A stretch of DNA of 37,444 bases from a virus. The stretch spans positions 1 through 37,444 of IMG/VR virus record IMGVR_UViG_3300045988_122803, one strand, 5' to 3'. Positions 157-14,207 of this stretch are shown one piece after another (within the stretch, counting starts at the first letter, position 1; each line of letters begins with the position of its first letter). The position numbers were made by a program, and so were the translations under genes. Below the pieces are notes generated by a model. It did no database searches. It saw only the letters and a list, made by a program, of their open reading frames with translations, and was not told where the DNA came from.

Positions 157-1455
157 ATGGCCACATTTAAACCAGAAATCCAGAATAAACGCGCCGACGG
201 GACATATAATGTCCGAATAAGGATAACCCACAATCGTACAATCCGGCGCATGTCTACGCATATCTATGTTACCGCAGAGGATTTAACGCGAAACCTTAAA
301 ATAAAGAACCAATCCGTACTCGACAGATGCGAAGACCTTATTAGAAAGTGCCGGGAATTGTGTAACGGTCTTGGCTACTCTATTAACGCAATGCCGATCG
401 ATAACCTGGTAGACAAGATAAAAGAATATTTGCGGGGCGGCGAACAGTTCCATTTAAATTTTATAGAATACACGAAGCAAAAAGCGGCCGAAATGACGCC
501 GGGAACGGGCGCTACTTATCTTATAATGCTAAATGCGTTACAGAGATACATAAAACGCGATAACCTGGATATAACGGAAATAAACGCCGCCTTTTTACGG
601 GGCTTCGAAAAATTCTTAGAAACGGAACCCTCGCAGCAGGGCAATAACCGCAAAACACCGGCACGAAGCCTTAAAACAAAAGGCGGCCGGGCAGTATCGG
701 CATATCTTGCGTGTATCCGCGCTATACACAATAAGGCAAAGGCAGAGTTTAACGACGAGGACAGGGGGCTAATCCGTATCCCATGTTCTCCGTTCAAATA
801 TTATAGGATCAGGCCGCAACCGAAAACGCGGAAAAGAGCGTTGCCGGTCCAAGCCTTACAAAAAATAATCAATCTGCCGTACGAAAAAGAAAAAAAAGGC
901 GAAAAATGGTCGCGTTTTAACCTGGCAAAAGACTGTTTTATATTGTCCTTCGCACTAATAGGCATGAACAGCGCCGATATGTTTTACACAGAGGGCGACG
1001 GCTTAGATACGATAATATATAACCGGCGCAAAACCGCAAGGCGCCGCCGGGATGATAACGCAGAAATGCATGTGCGTATAGAACCCTGCGTAATTCCGCT
1101 TATCGAAAAATACCGAGACCCTAAAGGCGCTCGCCTGTTTAGTTTTTATAATCACTACACCACCTCGATGATTTTTAATAAGGCTATTAACAAAGGTCTA
1201 AAACAGATCGGAGAAAAATTAGGCATAGAGGGGCTGGAATTTTATGCAGCCCGGCACAGCTGGGCTACTATCGCACGATCGAGCGCCGTAGGCATAGATA
1301 AGGCGACGGTACACGAGGCGTTAAACCACGCCGACGGCGAAATGAAAGTTACCGATATCTATATAAAAAAGGATTGGTCGGTGATATGGGAGGCGAATAA
1401 AAAGGTATTATCCGTGTTTGACTGGACCGAGTTAGAGTTGTTATACCTTATTTAA
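157..1455 (+). CDS. int: Tyrosine recombinase / phage integrase (Bacteroidota type)
   Basis: 432-aa ORF adjacent to attL. N-terminal arm-type DNA-binding-like segment (MATFKPEIQNKRADGTYNVRIRI). C-terminal catalytic signatures ..YAARHSWATIA.. and ..LNHADGEMKVTDIYI (His/Arg and terminal Tyr of the R-H-R-Y set). Confidence 0.9.
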   Translation: MATFKPEIQNKRADGTYNVRIRITHNRTIRRMSTHIYVTAEDLTRNLKIKNQSVLDRCEDLIRKCRELCNGLGYSINAMPIDNLVDKIKEYLRGGEQFHLNFIEYTKQKAAEMTPGTGATYLIMLNALQRYIKRDNLDITEINAAFLRGFEKFLETEPSQQGNNRKTPARSLKTKGGRAVSAYLACIRAIHNKAKAEFNDEDRGLIRIPCSPFKYYRIRPQPKTRKRALPVQALQKIINLPYEKEKKGEKWSRFNLAKDCFILSFALIGMNSADMFYTEGDGLDTIIYNRRKTARRRRDDNAEMHVRIEPCVIPLIEKYRDPKGARLFSFYNHYTTSMIFNKAINKGLKQIGEKLGIEGLEFYAARHSWATIARSSAVGIDKATVHEALNHADGEMKVTDIYIKKDWSVIWEANKKVLSVFDWTELELLYLI

Positions 1456-1581: not shown

Positions 1582-1797
1582 ATGAAAAAATTAACCCGCC
1601 TCTCAAAAAAAGCAATTGAATTCTGCGAATTGTCCGGATATGATGTAAACAAGATTCGCGAAAACATGAAATCAGAAAGTTTTGCTTTTCAGATTTGTGA
1701 AACAAGAGAAGATATGAATGACAATGGTGTAGATTATAATTATCCCTATGTCATTTTTAATCCTTTTAATTTCGATATAGAGAAAGAATATGATTAA
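1582..1797 (+). CDS. Hypothetical protein (71 aa)
   Basis: ORF behind a consensus promoter; overlaps the next ORF by 8 nt (coupled). No recognisable motif. Confidence 0.5.
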   Translation: MKKLTRLSKKAIEFCELSGYDVNKIRENMKSESFAFQICETREDMNDNGVDYNYPYVIFNPFNFDIEKEYD

Positions 1798-2113
1798 AGA
1801 AAAGAAACAACACGGCGGCGCCCGTCCCGGAGCCGGGCGGAAGAAATCGGATAATGCAAAAAAGACATTTAGTTGCCGCCTATCCGATCAAGTTGAATCG
1901 CTTTTAAGCGATTTTACGGAAGGAACAGGACTTACTAAAACGCAACTCGTAGAATATTCTCTGTTTAATAGCCTATCCTATAATAATCCGGACGTTGTAT
2001 ATTGCCCGGATTGCGGCAAGCCGGTAGTTTTTAGAAGTATGATCCTGCCAACCGGCGAGTGTGATGTTAAATGCCGGTGCGGGCGCGAGTTTATGGCAGG
2101 ACTATCCGACTAG
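1790..2113 (+). CDS. Putative ribbon-helix-helix DNA-binding protein with C-terminal Cys4 zinc ribbon
   Basis: Basic arm HGGARPGAGRKK, then TFSCRLSDQVESLL..GLTKTQLVEYSL (strand-helix-helix pattern), then CPDCG..(17)..CRCG. Confidence 0.5.
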   Translation: MIKEKKQHGGARPGAGRKKSDNAKKTFSCRLSDQVESLLSDFTEGTGLTKTQLVEYSLFNSLSYNNPDVVYCPDCGKPVVFRSMILPTGECDVKCRCGREFMAGLSD

Positions 2114-2745: not shown

Positions 2746-2831
2746 AACCTTTTTTAATTATCGTTTATATTTACCGATACTCCGATTTTATCGGTCAACT
2801 CTCTTCGGGTTAAACCCGGCATTTGCTCCAT

Positions 2832-3155
2832 TTATCCCAGTTTATCTATGTTTTTAATTTTGCTTTGAATCACGCTAATATCCCTTTTCAAGGTATTTAT
2901 ATCGCCTTGAAAAGCGGTAAGACGCTTTTCTATTTTGTCCGGCAATCCCCCGCCCAACTCTCTTTCAGTGTTATACAGTTCGACAAAATCTTTAAACCAA
3001 TTAGCTAACTGTGTAAGTGCTTTCGTATTGGCGTTTACCAGTACTAATACGTCTTCAATAGCTTCTTTTGTATTAACGTACTCACCCGTCAAAGAATGCA
3101 TTTTATTATTTAAGTCAAAGTCCATTTTATTTTTTATCGGTGTTAATCTTACCAT
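2832..3155 (-). CDS. Hypothetical helical protein (107 aa)
   Basis: ORF 24 nt downstream of the repressor gene on the same strand. Predicted helical/coiled; no motif recognised. An alternative start (MDFDL) lies at 3125. Confidence 0.5.
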   Translation of the reverse strand: MVRLTPIKNKMDFDLNNKMHSLTGEYVNTKEAIEDVLVLVNANTKALTQLANWFKDFVELYNTERELGGGLPDKIEKRLTAFQGDINTLKRDISVIQSKIKNIDKLG

Positions 3156-3178
3156 TTTACCCGTTTTACAAGCGCAAT

Positions 3179-3559
3179 TTATGCAATGGCCGCAATATCG
3201 GGAATCTTTTTTGAGAGAGTTTCTATAGTTCGTTGTTGTGATAATACCGTTTCCGTTAACCGCGTAATTTGGTCGAAGACTTCGCGCGGCATAGAAATAT
3301 TATCACTTTGCATATCGTTAGGCGAAGCCGTATTAACGTACTTTTCGCCTTTTCCTGTTTTTAGCCATACCGTACTAATATTAAAAGCCCTACATATATC
3401 GTTCATCACTCTATCGCCAATTGACCTTTTGCCATTCTCAATTGATGAGTAATTTTTAGGGTCTATCCCGGCCTTCGCTGCAAAATCTTTAGAAAGCAAT
3501 CCCGTTTCCATTCGTACCGCTATCAACCTTTCGGTTATTTCCTTTTTATTATCAATCAT
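3179..3559 (-). CDS. XRE/cI-type HTH transcriptional repressor
   Basis: HTH_3 pattern LSKDFAAKAGIDPKNYSSIENGKRSIGDRVMNDICRAFNISTVWLKTGKG. Lies next to the inverted-repeat promoter region and is divergent from the early genes. Confidence 0.8.
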   Translation of the reverse strand: MIDNKKEITERLIAVRMETGLLSKDFAAKAGIDPKNYSSIENGKRSIGDRVMNDICRAFNISTVWLKTGKGEKYVNTASPNDMQSDNISMPREVFDQITRLTETVLSQQRTIETLSKKIPDIAAIA

Positions 3560-3591
3560 TTACATTCTAATTTTGGGGTTATAGGAAAAAT

Positions 3592-3620
3592 AATCATCAA
3601 ATAGTTTGCTTATGATGATT
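3592..3620. other. AT-rich hairpin (8-bp stem, 13-nt loop) between the 3-TM gene and the repressor gene
   Basis: AATCATCA(3592-3599)/TGATGATT(3613-3620), with T-rich flanks on both strands. A weak attenuator/terminator candidate. Confidence 0.3.
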
Positions 3621-3636
3621 TTTGACGATATATTTG
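3605..3636 (+). promoter_or_regulatory. Rightward consensus promoter TTTG-N20-TATATTTG
   Basis: TTTG at 3605-3608, TATATTTG at 3629-3636 (Bacteroidota -33/-7 consensus). Confidence 0.5.
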
Positions 3637-3660
3637 TACTTGTAATTAACAAGGGACTTA

Positions 3661-3691
3661 CAAATATATACAAATTATTTGTACATGCCAA
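3661..3691 (-). promoter_or_regulatory. Leftward promoter TTG-N20-TATATTTG facing the repressor gene
   Basis: The minus strand reads AATTGGCATGTACAAATAATTTGTATATATTTG. The -7 box occupies 3668-3661 and the TTG 3691-3689. Confidence 0.45.
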
Positions 3692-4124
3692 TTACCATAA
3701 GTCCCATAATAAATAATACGAATGCAACGTAACCGATTATTTCACATACGAAAAAGAACGATGAAACATCTGTTTTTAAAACTACGCCGTAGGGCGCTTC
3801 ATCTTCTTTCAGGGCAAACGATTGTTTTATTAGTCTGCGTATCTGAAAAAGGGTGCGCCTGTAAAGAAGCCTATAACCTAATAAGGCAGTGCCGAAAGAA
3901 AGGACGCAAAGTACATTTAGTGGTATCAGTAGATTACACAGAGTGCGCAAAATGCAGGCACTCGAAATATCTTGGGGAGTCTTTAACACTAACGATGCCG
4001 CTAACACTGTAGTAGATATAAGTAAAAATGTACTTAATGCACGGTAAGACACTAAATCATTTTCCAGCTGATACCGTGTATGTAAATCGGTAAGATCACG
4101 TTGGTATTTTTCTCTGTTTGTCAT
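3675..4124 (-). CDS. Small integral membrane protein (3 predicted TM helices)
   Basis: 149 aa. Hydrophobic stretches STFLLISTTVLAASLVL, LCNLLIPLNVLCVLSFGTALLGY and FFFVCEIIGYVAFVLFIMGLMVIGM, with a basic linker YRRTLFQIRRLIKQ. First gene of the leftward operon. Confidence 0.6.
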   Translation of the reverse strand: MTNREKYQRDLTDLHTRYQLENDLVSYRALSTFLLISTTVLAASLVLKTPQDISSACILRTLCNLLIPLNVLCVLSFGTALLGYRLLYRRTLFQIRRLIKQSFALKEDEAPYGVVLKTDVSSFFFVCEIIGYVAFVLFIMGLMVIGMYK

Positions 4125-4149
4125 AATAAAGTAATTAACAAATAAAATA

Positions 4150-4157
4150 CAAATATA
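4150..4157 (-). promoter_or_regulatory. -7 box TATATTTG (read on minus strand) for the leftward 3-TM gene
   Basis: Plus-strand CAAATATA at 4150-4157, 26 nt upstream of the minus-strand start codon (4124). It abuts the ATG of the rightward gene at 4158. Confidence 0.4.
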
Positions 4158-4379
4158 ATGAAAAAAACATTTGTAGAATGGTGGAAAGGCCTGACGCCTC
4201 CGGAAAGGGATGAAGTTGCTATAGAGCTTTCCCGTAAATGCAATACCGCTATAGCAACGGTAAATTCGTGGGGGCTGGGATACAGAACCCCAAAAGCCCG
4301 GTCAAGGGCAATTATTGCAGACTACCTAAAGATATCCCTAAATGTAGAAACCGAAAGTAACACCCTGTTTCCTAATTAA
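4158..4379 (+). CDS. Cro/YdaS-like small HTH regulator
   Basis: 73 aa. ..VAIELSRKCNTAIATVNSWGLGYRTPKARSRAIIADYL is an HTH followed by the W..G.R.P pattern. First rightward early gene. Confidence 0.5.
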   Translation: MKKTFVEWWKGLTPPERDEVAIELSRKCNTAIATVNSWGLGYRTPKARSRAIIADYLKISLNVETESNTLFPN

Positions 4380-4380
4380 A

Positions 4381-4653
4381 ATGGACTTTTTTACTTTAAA
4401 ACAGCAAATAACGGAAGCGGCCGAATTATCGGCGCTGGCTATCGCAAAACAGATGTTCCCGGCTTTCGACGAGGTAAAATTTGACGAAGCCGCTAAGATC
4501 GCGGGTAGCGTACGTTGGCTAAAATACCACATCAAGGCCGGCAATATCCCGCCCAGGCGCCGCGGCCCGGCGAAAAACTCCCCGATCTATTACAGTCGTT
4601 TAGACATCGCCGCGACAAAAAAGGCGGAAGCGGAAATGGCAAAATTAAAATAG
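4381..4653 (+). CDS. Excisionase-family (HTH_17/MerR-like) DNA-binding protein
   Basis: ..FDEAAKIAGSVRWLKYHIKAGNIPPRRRGPAKNSPIYYSRLDI matches the Xis-type winged-helix pattern. Confidence 0.45.
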   Translation: MDFFTLKQQITEAAELSALAIAKQMFPAFDEVKFDEAAKIAGSVRWLKYHIKAGNIPPRRRGPAKNSPIYYSRLDIAATKKAEAEMAKLK

Positions 4654-4655
4654 AC

Positions 4656-4880
4656 ATGGAAAAGAAGAAAATCTACAGACTGGATGCCGAGACAGCATTA
4701 CGCGAGAGATGCGTAAAAATGGCAGTCGACATTATGCGGATAGCGCCCGCGGGGCGTTGGCAACCGCTAACGGTAGCTAACAAACTACACGAATTCATCT
4801 TGGACGAAATTAAAAACAATCTGGAGTGTTTGGAGTTAAGCCCATTTGAGATACACGAAAAGAAAAAATCGGAAAAATAA
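4656..4880 (+). CDS. Hypothetical protein (74 aa)
   Basis: Uses the internal ATG (MEKKKIYRLD..) of track ORF 4515-4880. This start lies 3 nt after the upstream stop. The longer N-terminus overlaps 4381-4653 out of frame. Confidence 0.5.
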   Translation: MEKKKIYRLDAETALRERCVKMAVDIMRIAPAGRWQPLTVANKLHEFILDEIKNNLECLELSPFEIHEKKKSEK

Positions 4881-4913
4881 ATCCGGCATGTTTAACAATT
4901 AAATTTTTTAGCA

Positions 4914-5366
4914 ATGGAAATTACAGTAACAGGAACCGTATTTGTAGAAGTTGGCCCAAAAACAATGGCCATTCTTACAGGTGTAACCAATGTAAAAAGT
5001 CCGAAAACACAGGACGTCTCTACAGACGTAAAAATCCCGCAGGAAACGGAACAGGCGAAAGAACAGAAAACGCGTACCTCCACTAAGCAGGCGGTTAAAG
5101 AAGACACGACAAAGGAGAAAACCGGCTCCTCGTTTGCCGATCTGGACGACGAAGCCAAACTGGAAGCGATTAAGGCAGAAGTAACGAGACACACAAAGAA
5201 CCGGAAAGGGGCAGACATCAAGTGGATGCTGGCCCAGTTTAACGCGTCCAGTGTGTCTAAGATCGACCCGATCGATCCTAAAGACTACGACGCCTTTTAT
5301 AACGCTATTATGCGTTACGGGGCCGGTGAAGCGCTTACAGATATTTTCCCTAGCGATTTGATGTAA
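4914..5366 (+). CDS. Hypothetical protein (150 aa)
   Basis: Co-oriented ORF whose stop overlaps the next start (TAATG). Charged, Lys/Glu/Thr-rich middle region. Confidence 0.55.
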   Translation: MEITVTGTVFVEVGPKTMAILTGVTNVKSPKTQDVSTDVKIPQETEQAKEQKTRTSTKQAVKEDTTKEKTGSSFADLDDEAKLEAIKAEVTRHTKNRKGADIKWMLAQFNASSVSKIDPIDPKDYDAFYNAIMRYGAGEALTDIFPSDLM

Positions 5367-6490
5367 TGAGCGGGACACATGCAATATTAAGTCCGTCGGC
5401 GGCGTACAGGTGGCTAATCTGTACGCCTTCGGCCCGCTTCGAAGAACAGATACCCGGAGAGGAGAGCGTATACGCGGCGGAAGGGACGTTAGCGCACGAG
5501 CTGGCCGCACTTCTTTTAACGGCCCGTGCCGGCTTGTTTAAAGGTCCGCAGAAGGCGTTTAACGCCTTACTCAACAAAATAACCTCTAACGAATTGTACA
5601 GCCCCGAGATGCTGGAGCATTGCGAAGCCTATGCCGGTTTTGTAATAGATAAGGGCGGCGAAATTCTCGTAGAACATTCCTACGATCTTGCAAAATATAT
5701 CCCGCTTGGCCGGGGGACGGCGGATGCGACGAACTTTACAAAATCCACGATATACGTAACGGATTTTAAGTACGGTGCCGGCATACGTGTTTCCGCTACC
5801 GTTAACACGCAGCTGATGTGTTACGGGCTGGGGGCTTACGAAGAGGCAATAAAAAGAGGATTAAACCCTAAAACCTTCGTTCTGTCTATATTTCAGCCGC
5901 GGGCGGGTGGCCCGGCCTCCTGGGAAATAAGTACCGACGATCTTTTAGAATGGGCCTGGGGGGTAGTAATCCCGAAAGCCGGGCTAGCCATGGCCGGTCA
6001 GGGGGAATTTAAACCCGGTAGTCACTGCCAGTTTTGCAAGGCACGCACTTCCTGTAAAGCATATTTTACCCGCTTCTCGGATATAAAATCGATAAAGGAC
6101 AAAAGGGTTATGACCGACGACGACTTAATAGCCGTGCTGACGCATGGTCCTGCCCTGGCCTCCTGGGTTAAAAAAGTAGAAGAAGAAACGGTTAAGCGAT
6201 TGGAAAACGGTAAGCCGCTTAACGGGTTTAAACTCGTAGCCGGACGCGGGCGCCGGTCTTTTAAAAACGAGGACGACGTAGTAGATATCCTATTTGGCGA
6301 AGGTTTAGAAAACGACATCTTCGATAGTTCTATAAAACCTCTTACCGCGATTGAAAAATTAGTAGGACCTAAACGGTTTAAGGAACTCTTTGCAGACTGC
6401 ATAATAAATGTACCCGGCAAGCCACAAATCGCGCCGCTTGACGATAGCAGACCGGCTATAGGCGCTTCCGGGGCAGACGAGTACGACTAA
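5366..6490 (+). CDS. PD-(D/E)XK, Cas4-like exonuclease (DUF2800 family)
   Basis: N-terminal HAILSPSAAYRWLICTPS; DFKYG core. Cys pattern C19 ... C-x2-C-x5-C (HCQFCKARTSC) typical of a Cas4-type Fe-S cluster. Sits in the DUF2800-DUF2815-PolA cassette. Confidence 0.8.
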   Translation: MSGTHAILSPSAAYRWLICTPSARFEEQIPGEESVYAAEGTLAHELAALLLTARAGLFKGPQKAFNALLNKITSNELYSPEMLEHCEAYAGFVIDKGGEILVEHSYDLAKYIPLGRGTADATNFTKSTIYVTDFKYGAGIRVSATVNTQLMCYGLGAYEEAIKRGLNPKTFVLSIFQPRAGGPASWEISTDDLLEWAWGVVIPKAGLAMAGQGEFKPGSHCQFCKARTSCKAYFTRFSDIKSIKDKRVMTDDDLIAVLTHGPALASWVKKVEEETVKRLENGKPLNGFKLVAGRGRRSFKNEDDVVDILFGEGLENDIFDSSIKPLTAIEKLVGPKRFKELFADCIINVPGKPQIAPLDDSRPAIGASGADEYD

Positions 6491-13958: not shown

Positions 13959-14207
13959 TTGGTTTTTGGTTTTTTTTGGTTTTCACCAGCCCGGAACCAA
14001 AAAACCAAAATCGGGTTTACGGGCTTAGCCGTTGGTTTTTTGGTTGCGCTTAATTAACAACGGGTTACACCCCTAAAACACCAAAAAACCAAAAAAATAT
14101 ATACAGTATAATATAGTAAATAAATTAACAATATACACGATTTACGCAATATATGTACGCGTATATAAGTGTATAGGAAAAAGGGTTTTTTAGTTTTTGG
14201 TTTTTTG
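13959..14207. repeat. Iteron array plus AT-rich block; putative replication origin
   Basis: GGTTTTT(T)GG / CCAAAAAACC units in alternating orientation at about 13959-13983 (+), 13996-14010 (-), 14032-14044 (+), 14080-14094 (-) and 14192-14207 (+). The 15-mer ACCAAAAAACCAAAA occurs twice. An AT-rich stretch at 14097-14180 is rich in TATA/ATAT runs. Confidence 0.55.

Follow-up and report, generated by a model that had tools for sequence, protein, structure and literature searches.

Face-to-face predicted promoters beside an immunity repressor gene: a probable lysis/lysogeny switch in temperate phages of Bacteroidota

Introduction

In phages P2 (Pe/Pc, controlled by C and Cox) and 186 (pR/pL, controlled by CI and Apl), the lytic and lysogenic promoters face each other, with transcription starts 40-60 bp apart. 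The immunity operators of P2-like switches lie over the lytic promoter and the Cox or Apl sites lie between the two starts, and in phage 186 pR inhibits pL but not the reverse (PMC7498355). A comparable layout is found outside phage switches in the Ecl18kI/SsoII restriction-modification region, where the genes are divergent and their promoters actually face each other (PMC2760811). In Ecl18kI the stronger promoter masks the weaker through a front-end clash of bound polymerases, and an HTH regulator blocks the strong promoter and indirectly activates the other one, whose transcript reads through the bound regulator (PMC2760811). Phage lambda provides the back-to-back arrangement, in which PRM and PR are controlled from operators shared by CI and Cro.

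Prophages of Bacteroidota are among the commonest elements of the human gut. The original prediction, made for a single viral sequence, proposed that two promoters stand face to face beside the repressor gene and work in the manner of P2 and 186, and that such a switch is not known to have been described for Bacteroidota prophages. Our literature searches agree on the last point: they turned up no description of how the switch of Bacteroidota phages is built, and a 2026 survey of 902 Bacteroidales prophages treats repressor types, not promoter or operator layout (10.64898/2026.06.25.734096). Here we compare this locus with its relatives. The conservation of its layout suggests that the head-on pair is probably the core of the lysis/lysogeny switch in dozens of distantly related phages.

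Results

Two consensus -7 boxes face each other beside the repressor gene

The window is the whole 37,444-nucleotide stretch of IMG/VR record IMGVR_UViG_3300045988_122803. A repeat search recovered the perfect 11-bp inverted repeat that had been proposed, with ATATATTTGTA at 3628-3638, TACAAATATAT at 3659-3669 and 20 nt between the arms. The Bacteroidota sigma-A consensus consists of a -33 element TTTG and a -7 box TAnnTTTG (PMC7366714, PMC9723704), and each arm contains a match to the latter, TATATTTG, at 3629-3636 on the plus strand and at 3661-3668 on the minus strand. The two boxes are convergent, lie beside the repressor gene and have 24 bp between them. We refer to the corresponding candidate promoters as P_R (rightward) and P_L1 (leftward). 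The other elements of the original prediction are likewise present in the sequence: a -33 element 20 nt upstream of each box, TTTG at 3605-3608 for P_R and TTG at 3691-3689 for P_L1; a dyad CTTGT-N5-ACAAG at 3639-3653; and a palindrome TACAAAT-T-ATTTGTA at 3669-3683. The starts had been placed at about 3643 and 3654. Their convergence holds, and the positions are shifted by the rule that the sigma-A -7 box occupies -12 to -5 (PMC9723704), which predicts a rightward start at 3641 and a leftward start at 3656, about 15 bp apart, with a 16-nt overlap of the transcript 5' ends. Where the spacer between the boxes is 22 nt, the predicted overlap is 14 nt.

When the local 25%-GC stretch was shuffled 20,000 times, 142 of the shuffled sequences contained a perfect 11-bp inverted repeat whose loop was no longer than 30 nt (p ~0.007). 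The 37.4-kb window has one copy of the facing pattern TAnnTTTG-N20-27-CAAAnnTA, where 0.035 would be expected, and the single motif TAnnTTTG shows no enrichment (28 found, 30 expected). Inverted repeats are also the hallmark of invertons, where they enclose a promoter-carrying segment of at least a hundred bp and are accompanied by a dedicated invertase. We rejected a Bacteroides inverton for this locus: the arms are only 20 nt apart, and the sole nearby recombinase is the prophage integrase on the left-hand side of the window (157-1455, plus strand), 2 kb away.

The facing pair is retained among distant relatives

Scans of genomes and metagenomes with the repressor sequence returned few loci, and the usable set of relatives came from an IMG/VR scan with a repressor alignment, which gave 80 loci at 23-80% identity. 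GenBank phages gave no match to a DNA search with window positions 2800-5400, and protein searches of GenBank phages found no Bacteroidota phage with this repressor. The pattern TAnnTTTG-N20-27-CAAAnnTA is present in 37 of the 58 distinct regions upstream of the repressor and its relatives (23-100% identity), against 0.05 in shuffles; these 37 cases are not independent events, as the lineages are related, and they comprise 30 distinct cores. Box spacing is 22 nt in 14 cases, 24 nt in 13, and 23, 25 or 26 nt in the rest. No back-to-back pair of boxes at that spacing was found across the 58 regions. Several of the 21 regions lacking the pair hold a version of it with one mismatch, such as CATATTTG-N23-CAAATATA.

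The constant positions in these pairs are TA and TTTG only, while the "nn" positions vary independently between the two boxes, which argues that a promoter consensus is conserved rather than an arbitrary palindrome. In close relatives the minus-strand CAAAnnTA follows the rightward box after 22-24 nt, as CAAATATA, and the variant leftward box of L008 and L009, CAAAGATA, still fits TAnnTTTG and is counted in the 37. The exception is L010, with leftward boxes at 14 and 47 nt. The spacers between the boxes of close relatives belong to unrelated sequence families. Eight more distinct loci have repressors 60-89% identical to the one in the window, and in each of them the repressor gene is directly divergent from the first early gene. 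Since the paired -7 boxes are kept at 22-24 nt, down to 23% repressor identity, while the surrounding and intervening sequence changes, the comparison strongly supports the face-to-face pair beside the repressor gene. The operators assigned in the original prediction fare differently, as described below.

P_R matches the full sigma-A consensus and P_L1 matches it in part

P_R reads TTTG-N20-TATATTTG on the plus strand (3605-3636; -33 at 3605-3608, -7 box at 3629-3636) and matches the full consensus of a Bacteroidota sigma-A promoter, defined by TAnnTTTG with TTTG 19-21 nt upstream. In an alignment of 9 relatives its -33 TTG and its -7 box TATATTTG are invariant, and in close relatives the promoter is almost invariant as ATCATCAAATAATTTGC-N3-TGATGATTTTTGAYGATATATTTG. 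Across the 37 lineages, the rightward -33 is found at 19-21 nt as TTTG in 25 and as TTG in 34. The P_R -7 box lies 28-40 nt upstream of the first rightward gene in relatives, which corresponds to a normal Bacteroides leader length, the median leader of Bacteroides thetaiotaomicron being 32 nt (PMC7366714). In relatives without the 149-aa insertion described below, this gene starts 0-12 nt past the leftward box. These distances suggest that P_R drives the early genes in the relatives.

P_L1 combines a perfect -7 box (3661-3668, minus strand) with a partial -33 element, TTG and not TTTG, 20 nt upstream (3689-3691, minus strand). Its transcript would start at about 3656 and reach the repressor gene through a 97-nt leader that crosses P_R. 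The leftward -33 is TTG in 18 of the 37 lineages; in 17 it stands at exactly 20 nt, against a mean of 6.3 and a maximum of 15 in shuffles. It is TTTG in none of the 37, and L003, L008 and L009 have no TTG at this position. In L007 the leftward box stays beside P_R despite a first rightward gene 74 nt away, an arrangement which indicates that the box tracks P_R and not the gene start. No lineage has another canonical minus-strand box between the repressor gene and P_R. P_L1 thus appears to be the weaker promoter and the only canonical one for the repressor gene. By analogy, a strong lytic promoter facing a weak lysogenic one would follow the pattern reported for phage 186. A sigma-70 scan also matched the leftward promoter (TTGGCA-17-TATATT); this match was set aside as not relevant to Bacteroidota.

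A second leftward -7 box, P_L2 (4150-4157, minus strand), lies 26 nt upstream of the start of a 149-aa ORF and abuts the ATG of the 73-aa first early gene. It falls in the right copy of a 45-nt duplication and is present in this window only. P_L2 has no canonical rightward partner, only TCTGTTTG at 4113-4120, 29 nt away.

Candidate repressor half-sites surround the -33 element of P_R

The leftward genes to the left of the switch encode the immunity repressor, a 107-aa ORF and a DUF4468 protein. The repressor gene (3179-3559, minus strand) encodes a 126-aa XRE/Cro-C1 HTH protein (Pfam HTH_19 7.8e-12, HTH_3 1.5e-9) which matches PHROG transcriptional regulator and repressor families. Its AlphaFold model comprises a five-helix HTH domain (4-68), a disordered linker (78-88) and a long C-terminal helix (92-118). 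Foldseek assigns the model to the generic 434/Cro fold and lists P2 C (2xcj) only at rank 38, amid other generic HTH_3 folds, and a profile search of PDB sequences recovered neither P2 C nor 186 CI at E <=0.01. Neither Pfam nor the AlphaFold model shows a peptidase (S24) domain, and RecA-stimulated self-cleavage of this protein appears unlikely. The repressor fits the "NTD-only" type noted in Bacteroidales prophages (10.64898/2026.06.25.734096).

Three candidate half-sites surround the P_R -33. Oa, ATCATCAAA at 3593-3601 (-48 to -40 of P_R) with its core ATCATCA at 3593-3599, is inverted relative to the other two, Ob (TGATGAT, 3613-3619) and Oc (TGACGAT, 3623-3629), which lie between the -33 and the -7 box as direct repeats spaced by 10 bp. 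The centers of Oa, Ob and Oc are 20 and 10 bp apart, and together the sites stand on both sides of the -33 and occupy the stretch from there to the -7 box. Oa and Ob form part of a perfect 8-bp inverted repeat (AATCATCA at 3592-3599, TGATGATT at 3613-3620). Taken alone, the half-site repeat of the window is not significant (shuffles, p ~0.08).

Relatives with the same recognition helix, KNYSSIE[NS]GKR, retain Oa, Ob and Oc, and Oa becomes ATCACCA or ATAACCA only where the recognition helix of the repressor changes. L015 (helix RHFSSIITGKR) has ATCACCA, TGGCGAT and TGGTTAT at the half-sites, and L019 (helix RHLSPILKGKR) has ATAACCA and CGGTAAT. Position 3 of the half-site changes from A to G in both loci, matching the change in Oa, so that the same position is altered in the inverted and the direct copies. 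Unrelated lineages carry repeat pairs of their own at these positions, on either side of the -33 and spaced by 21-22 bp (GTATGGCAA twice, TTGTATGCTTTT twice, GGAATATATTC twice, and ACATTGTG with CACAATGT), and the longest repeat at the operator positions averages 8.6 nt against 6.05 in shuffles. Because the half-sites change in step with the recognition helix and unrelated lineages place their repeats at the same positions, Oa, Ob and Oc are the likelier repressor sites, and the repressor most likely binds ATCATCA/TGATGAT/TGACGAT around the P_R -33.

The spacer dyad accompanies the first early gene

The dyad CTTGT-AATTA-ACAAG (3639-3653), which spans both predicted starts, had been proposed as an operator for the adjacent repressor. 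L007, L009 and L019 retain it, as does L008 with a single mismatch; its core TTGTAA-N3-ACAA is also found in L002 and L017, beside genes of the EWWK family and different repressors. Dyad and EWWK-family first early gene occur together in six of six loci (the window, L007, L008, L009, L002 and L017), and between them these six loci have three different repressors, of which one is a tandem multi-HTH protein from a Salinivirgaceae genome. In L019 the dyad arms are present and the first gene is different. Since the dyad travels with the EWWK family and stands beside three different repressors, its assignment as a repressor operator is not supported, and it is more likely a site of the 73-aa early protein, a weaker assignment than that of the half-sites. 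In L047 and L029 the spacer and the right side are common while the left-hand operators and the repressor differ, and this sharing of the right side only would place a recombination boundary at the rightward box.

The 73-aa first early gene itself (4158-4379, plus strand) is the EWWK-family member of the window and a candidate Cro/Cox-like regulator. It shares ECNTAL.T...WGLGYRTPK with its relatives in L007, L008, L009, L002 and L017. A homologue search with the protein returned only itself, and it has no Pfam, PHROG or PDB-sequence match and no detectable DNA-binding family; its single-sequence model is of low confidence (pLDDT 68). The second early gene (90 aa, 4381-4653, plus strand) matches Pfam HTH_17, of the excisionase type, at E=0.0083, below the family cut-off, and phrog_17289 at 3.5e-9. 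It has homologues in L003 and L007-L011, and L015 has a 72-aa HTH_17 gene at its position. Downstream lie a DUF2800 nuclease and then a DNA polymerase. The polymerase resembles those of Firmicutes phages at ~50% identity, an observation of no help on the switch.

An insertion and a duplication are specific to the window

Between P_R and the first early gene lies a 149-aa ORFan with hydrophobic segments (3675-4124, minus strand). It has no Pfam, PHROG, PDB-sequence or PADLOC match, no homologue but itself in 5.8 billion proteins, and is absent from every relative examined; it appears to be an insertion specific to this window. Neither this ORF nor the second leftward box P_L2 figured in the original prediction. 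The ORF is flanked by the two copies of the 45-nt direct duplication, at 3642-3686 (plus strand) and 4131-4177. A pairwise alignment matches ATTTGTA (3677-3683), the right-hand arm of the 15-bp palindrome, to the 5' Phe-Val codons of the 73-aa gene. The match of this arm to the start of the gene within the repeat identifies the palindrome as a duplication scar; it occurs in the window only and is absent from all relatives, and we reject the earlier suggestion that it is an operator. The rightward early genes begin only at 4158, beyond the minus-strand ORF, and there is no terminator-like site on the plus strand between P_R and the early genes. In this phage alone, P_R transcripts destined for the early genes would first have to cross the 149-aa ORF in antisense, over ~500 nt.

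Discussion

We think it likely, on balance, that the interval 3590-3692 is the control core of a prophage lysis/lysogeny switch in which P_R and P_L1 compete. The open complex of bacterial RNA polymerase covers roughly -55 to +20. With starts about 15 bp apart, each polymerase would therefore cover the start and the initial transcribed region of the other promoter. Only one of the two promoters could then be occupied at a time, both polymerases needing the same DNA. In the switch that we propose, the strong P_R, starting near 3641, would drive the early genes, and the weaker P_L1, starting near 3656, would drive the repressor gene through its 97-nt leader. The 126-aa repressor, bound to the half-sites around the P_R -33, would shut P_R and free P_L1. 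Since these sites correspond to +28 to +64 of the repressor transcript, the bound protein could also restrain expression of its own gene. The 73-aa early protein might act on the dyad between the starts in the manner of Cox or Apl, a step we put forward with less assurance. P_L2 would serve the 149-aa ORF, and its transcripts could extend as far as the repressor gene, which would add ordinary convergent transcription to the competition at the core.

A broader reading can be offered tentatively. Temperate phages across Bacteroidota may share this one switch, which would be a purely steric toggle and tighter than any characterized convergent-promoter switch, and its immunity side (repressor and operators) and early side (spacer site and first early gene) may be independent modules exchanged by recombination at the rightward -7 box.

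Several other readings of the locus deserve consideration. Only the rightward promoter might be real, the leftward box being retained on other grounds and the repressor transcribed from P_L2 (4150-4157) or from an unrecognized nearer promoter, in which case the switch would not be face to face. Indeed, none of the leftward promoters shows a complete TTTG at -33, the TTG too is missing in several close relatives, and the leftward box usually abuts the first rightward start codon, so that it could reflect translation-start context; the window also offers a second leftward box upstream of the 149-aa ORF. We nevertheless consider this reading unlikely, since the conserved positions are exactly TA..TTTG with "nn" free, the distance between the boxes is fixed at 22-24 nt while the distance to the gene start ranges over 0-74 nt, no lineage has another canonical minus-strand box before the repressor gene or a back-to-back pair at that spacing, and P_L2 is confined to this window. 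A further possibility is that the leftward promoter is genuine and yields mainly a short RNA with an antisense or regulatory role, directed at the 5' end of the early transcript. In favor of this, the 5' ends of the two predicted transcripts share 14-16 nt, the repressor leader is long (97 nt against the Bacteroides thetaiotaomicron median of 32 nt, PMC7366714), and the dyad gives the leftward RNA a small 5' hairpin (-3.5 kcal/mol, z = -2.9). This hairpin, however, is weak and lineage-specific, there is no Rfam match, and the minus strand has no terminator-like site from 3656 to 3559, which makes such an RNA improbable as the main product. The dyad hairpin forms in the leftward RNA alone, and the stronger fold of the rightward RNA needs the palindrome that is found in the window only.

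The inverted repeat could also be a protein-binding palindrome, for a repressor dimer or tetramer or for a host factor, with an incidental likeness to the -7 box in one or both arms. The arms do form a perfect 11-bp inverted repeat in the window, and the fixed 22-24 nt, about two helical turns between centers, would suit a dimeric binder. In relatives, however, the arms are often non-complementary (TATATTTG with CAAAGATA, TACATTTG with CAAAGGTA), they stay constant when the recognition helix or the whole repressor family changes, and a consensus -33 lies at the right distance from the rightward arm in 34 of the 37 lineages; we regard this explanation as very improbable. Chance resemblance in an AT-rich intergenic stretch could be argued from its GC content of 25% and from the single TAnnTTTG motifs, which are as frequent as expected (28 against 30), but the local shuffles (p ~0.007) and the 37 conserved pairs against 0.05 expected lead us to reject it as extremely improbable.

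The competing-promoter switch that we favor would work like the P2/186 switch and the Ecl18kI region, and by homology the phage does not belong to the P2 family. As in P2 and 186, the lytic and lysogenic promoters, here predicted from their sequences, face each other, and a separate candidate site lies between the starts, where it travels with the first lytic gene. As in P2-like phages, heteroimmune relatives differ in their candidate operators and keep the layout (PMC7498355, PMC1904263). The repressor resembles P2 C in lacking a peptidase domain and in having, apparently, a single promoter. Unlike those of P2 and 186, the promoters are of the Bacteroidota sigma-A type (-33 TTTG, -7 TAnnTTTG), the likeness of the repressor to P2 C is limited to the generic 434/Cro fold, with no sequence match, no Cox or Apl homologue is recognizable, and the integrase gene lies outside the repressor operon. 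The predicted start separation is 14-16 bp instead of 40-60 bp, which implies direct competition for the same DNA and not interference by elongating polymerases. The Ecl18kI region, with its starts 50 bp apart, a single regulator (the methyltransferase), one operator and sigma-70 promoters, is not a phage switch. With lambda (PRM/PR) the locus shares an XRE/Cro-C1 HTH repressor encoded beside, and divergent from, the early lytic operon. It differs in that its promoters are face to face and not back to back, in the lack of an S24 peptidase domain and in the separate candidate sites of its two regulators, where CI and Cro share operators.

If the proposed switch is real, a simple sequence signature would serve to locate it in uncultured Bacteroidota phages and to predict their immunity groups. 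It would also offer a natural test case for competing promoters that lie much closer together than those of P2 and 186, and a compact two-state part for Bacteroides engineering. The targets for mutagenesis are exact: two boxes (for example TATATTTG to TCTATCCG), three half-sites and one dyad.

The boxes also occur in this orientation elsewhere. An IMG/VR-wide search for the exact TATATTTG-N20-27-CAAATATA gave at least 120 matches; those listed are mostly from unrelated AT-rich viruses and thus uninformative, with a mild excess only at spacings 24-25. In the remaining 257 kb of the loci compared here, we found eight further pairs, each pointing at a gene, and the genes that the far box would drive start 73-109 nt from the center of the pair. 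Six of these eight genes encode proteins resembling HTH repressors, with a WLLTGEG-type motif, and the products of the remaining two (in L061 and L064) are small and hydrophobic.

Possible module exchange and conserved motifs upstream of the repressor

Comparison of the upstream regions of the repressor relatives suggests that the rightward -7 box (3629-3636 in the window) is the point at which immunity modules recombine with early modules, because the locus L047 and the loci L029 and L039 are identical in the spacer between the two facing -7 boxes and on its right-hand side, whereas their candidate left-hand operators and their repressors differ. The L047 repressor shares 44% identity with the 126-aa query, against 35% for the L029/L039 group.

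The upstream regions of the distant relatives (e.g., L026, L029, L034, L047 and L091-L101) carry two further conserved motifs. One, GTTAAT(T/A)A, is positioned immediately upstream of the repressor start, 60-75 nt to the left of the rightward box; the other, AATAGTATAAACGCATTAAAA, is found 20-40 nt to the right of the leftward box. In nine relatives, all six bases of CATTTA (TAAATG on the coding strand; window 3560-3565) at the repressor start are invariant, and the 25 nt of leader beyond them vary freely.

Some repressor relatives are the final module of a tandem-HTH protein, a single chain of at least four HTH modules that each end in WLLTGEGEM. This protein is found in one Salinivirgaceae genome and on two contigs from metagenomes (L001, 1-1222; L017 and L018, about 1500-2840). 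It is accompanied by a face-to-face box pair of its own (L017:1525-1564), adjoining a gene of the EWWK family, to which the first early gene of the window belongs.

Other features of the window

The early promoter is separated from the early genes by an ORFan of 149 aa with hydrophobic segments (3675-4124, minus strand). The copies of a 45-nt direct duplication (3642-3686 and 4131-4177) flank this ORFan, and a second leftward -7 box falls within the duplication. No homologue of the ORFan was found and it is missing from all relatives; it may therefore be a moron expressed during lysogeny.

Immediately 3' of the stop codon of the ORF at 1790-2113 (plus strand) is a perfect 28-bp palindrome, GACCGTAGTAAAGC|GCTTTACTACGGTC (2113-2140), which has convergent genes on either side and is probably a two-way terminator. 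Finally, clustered TTGGTTTTT repeats at 13960-14050, together with copies of AACCAAAAAACC in inverted orientation, form a possible packaging or replication site.
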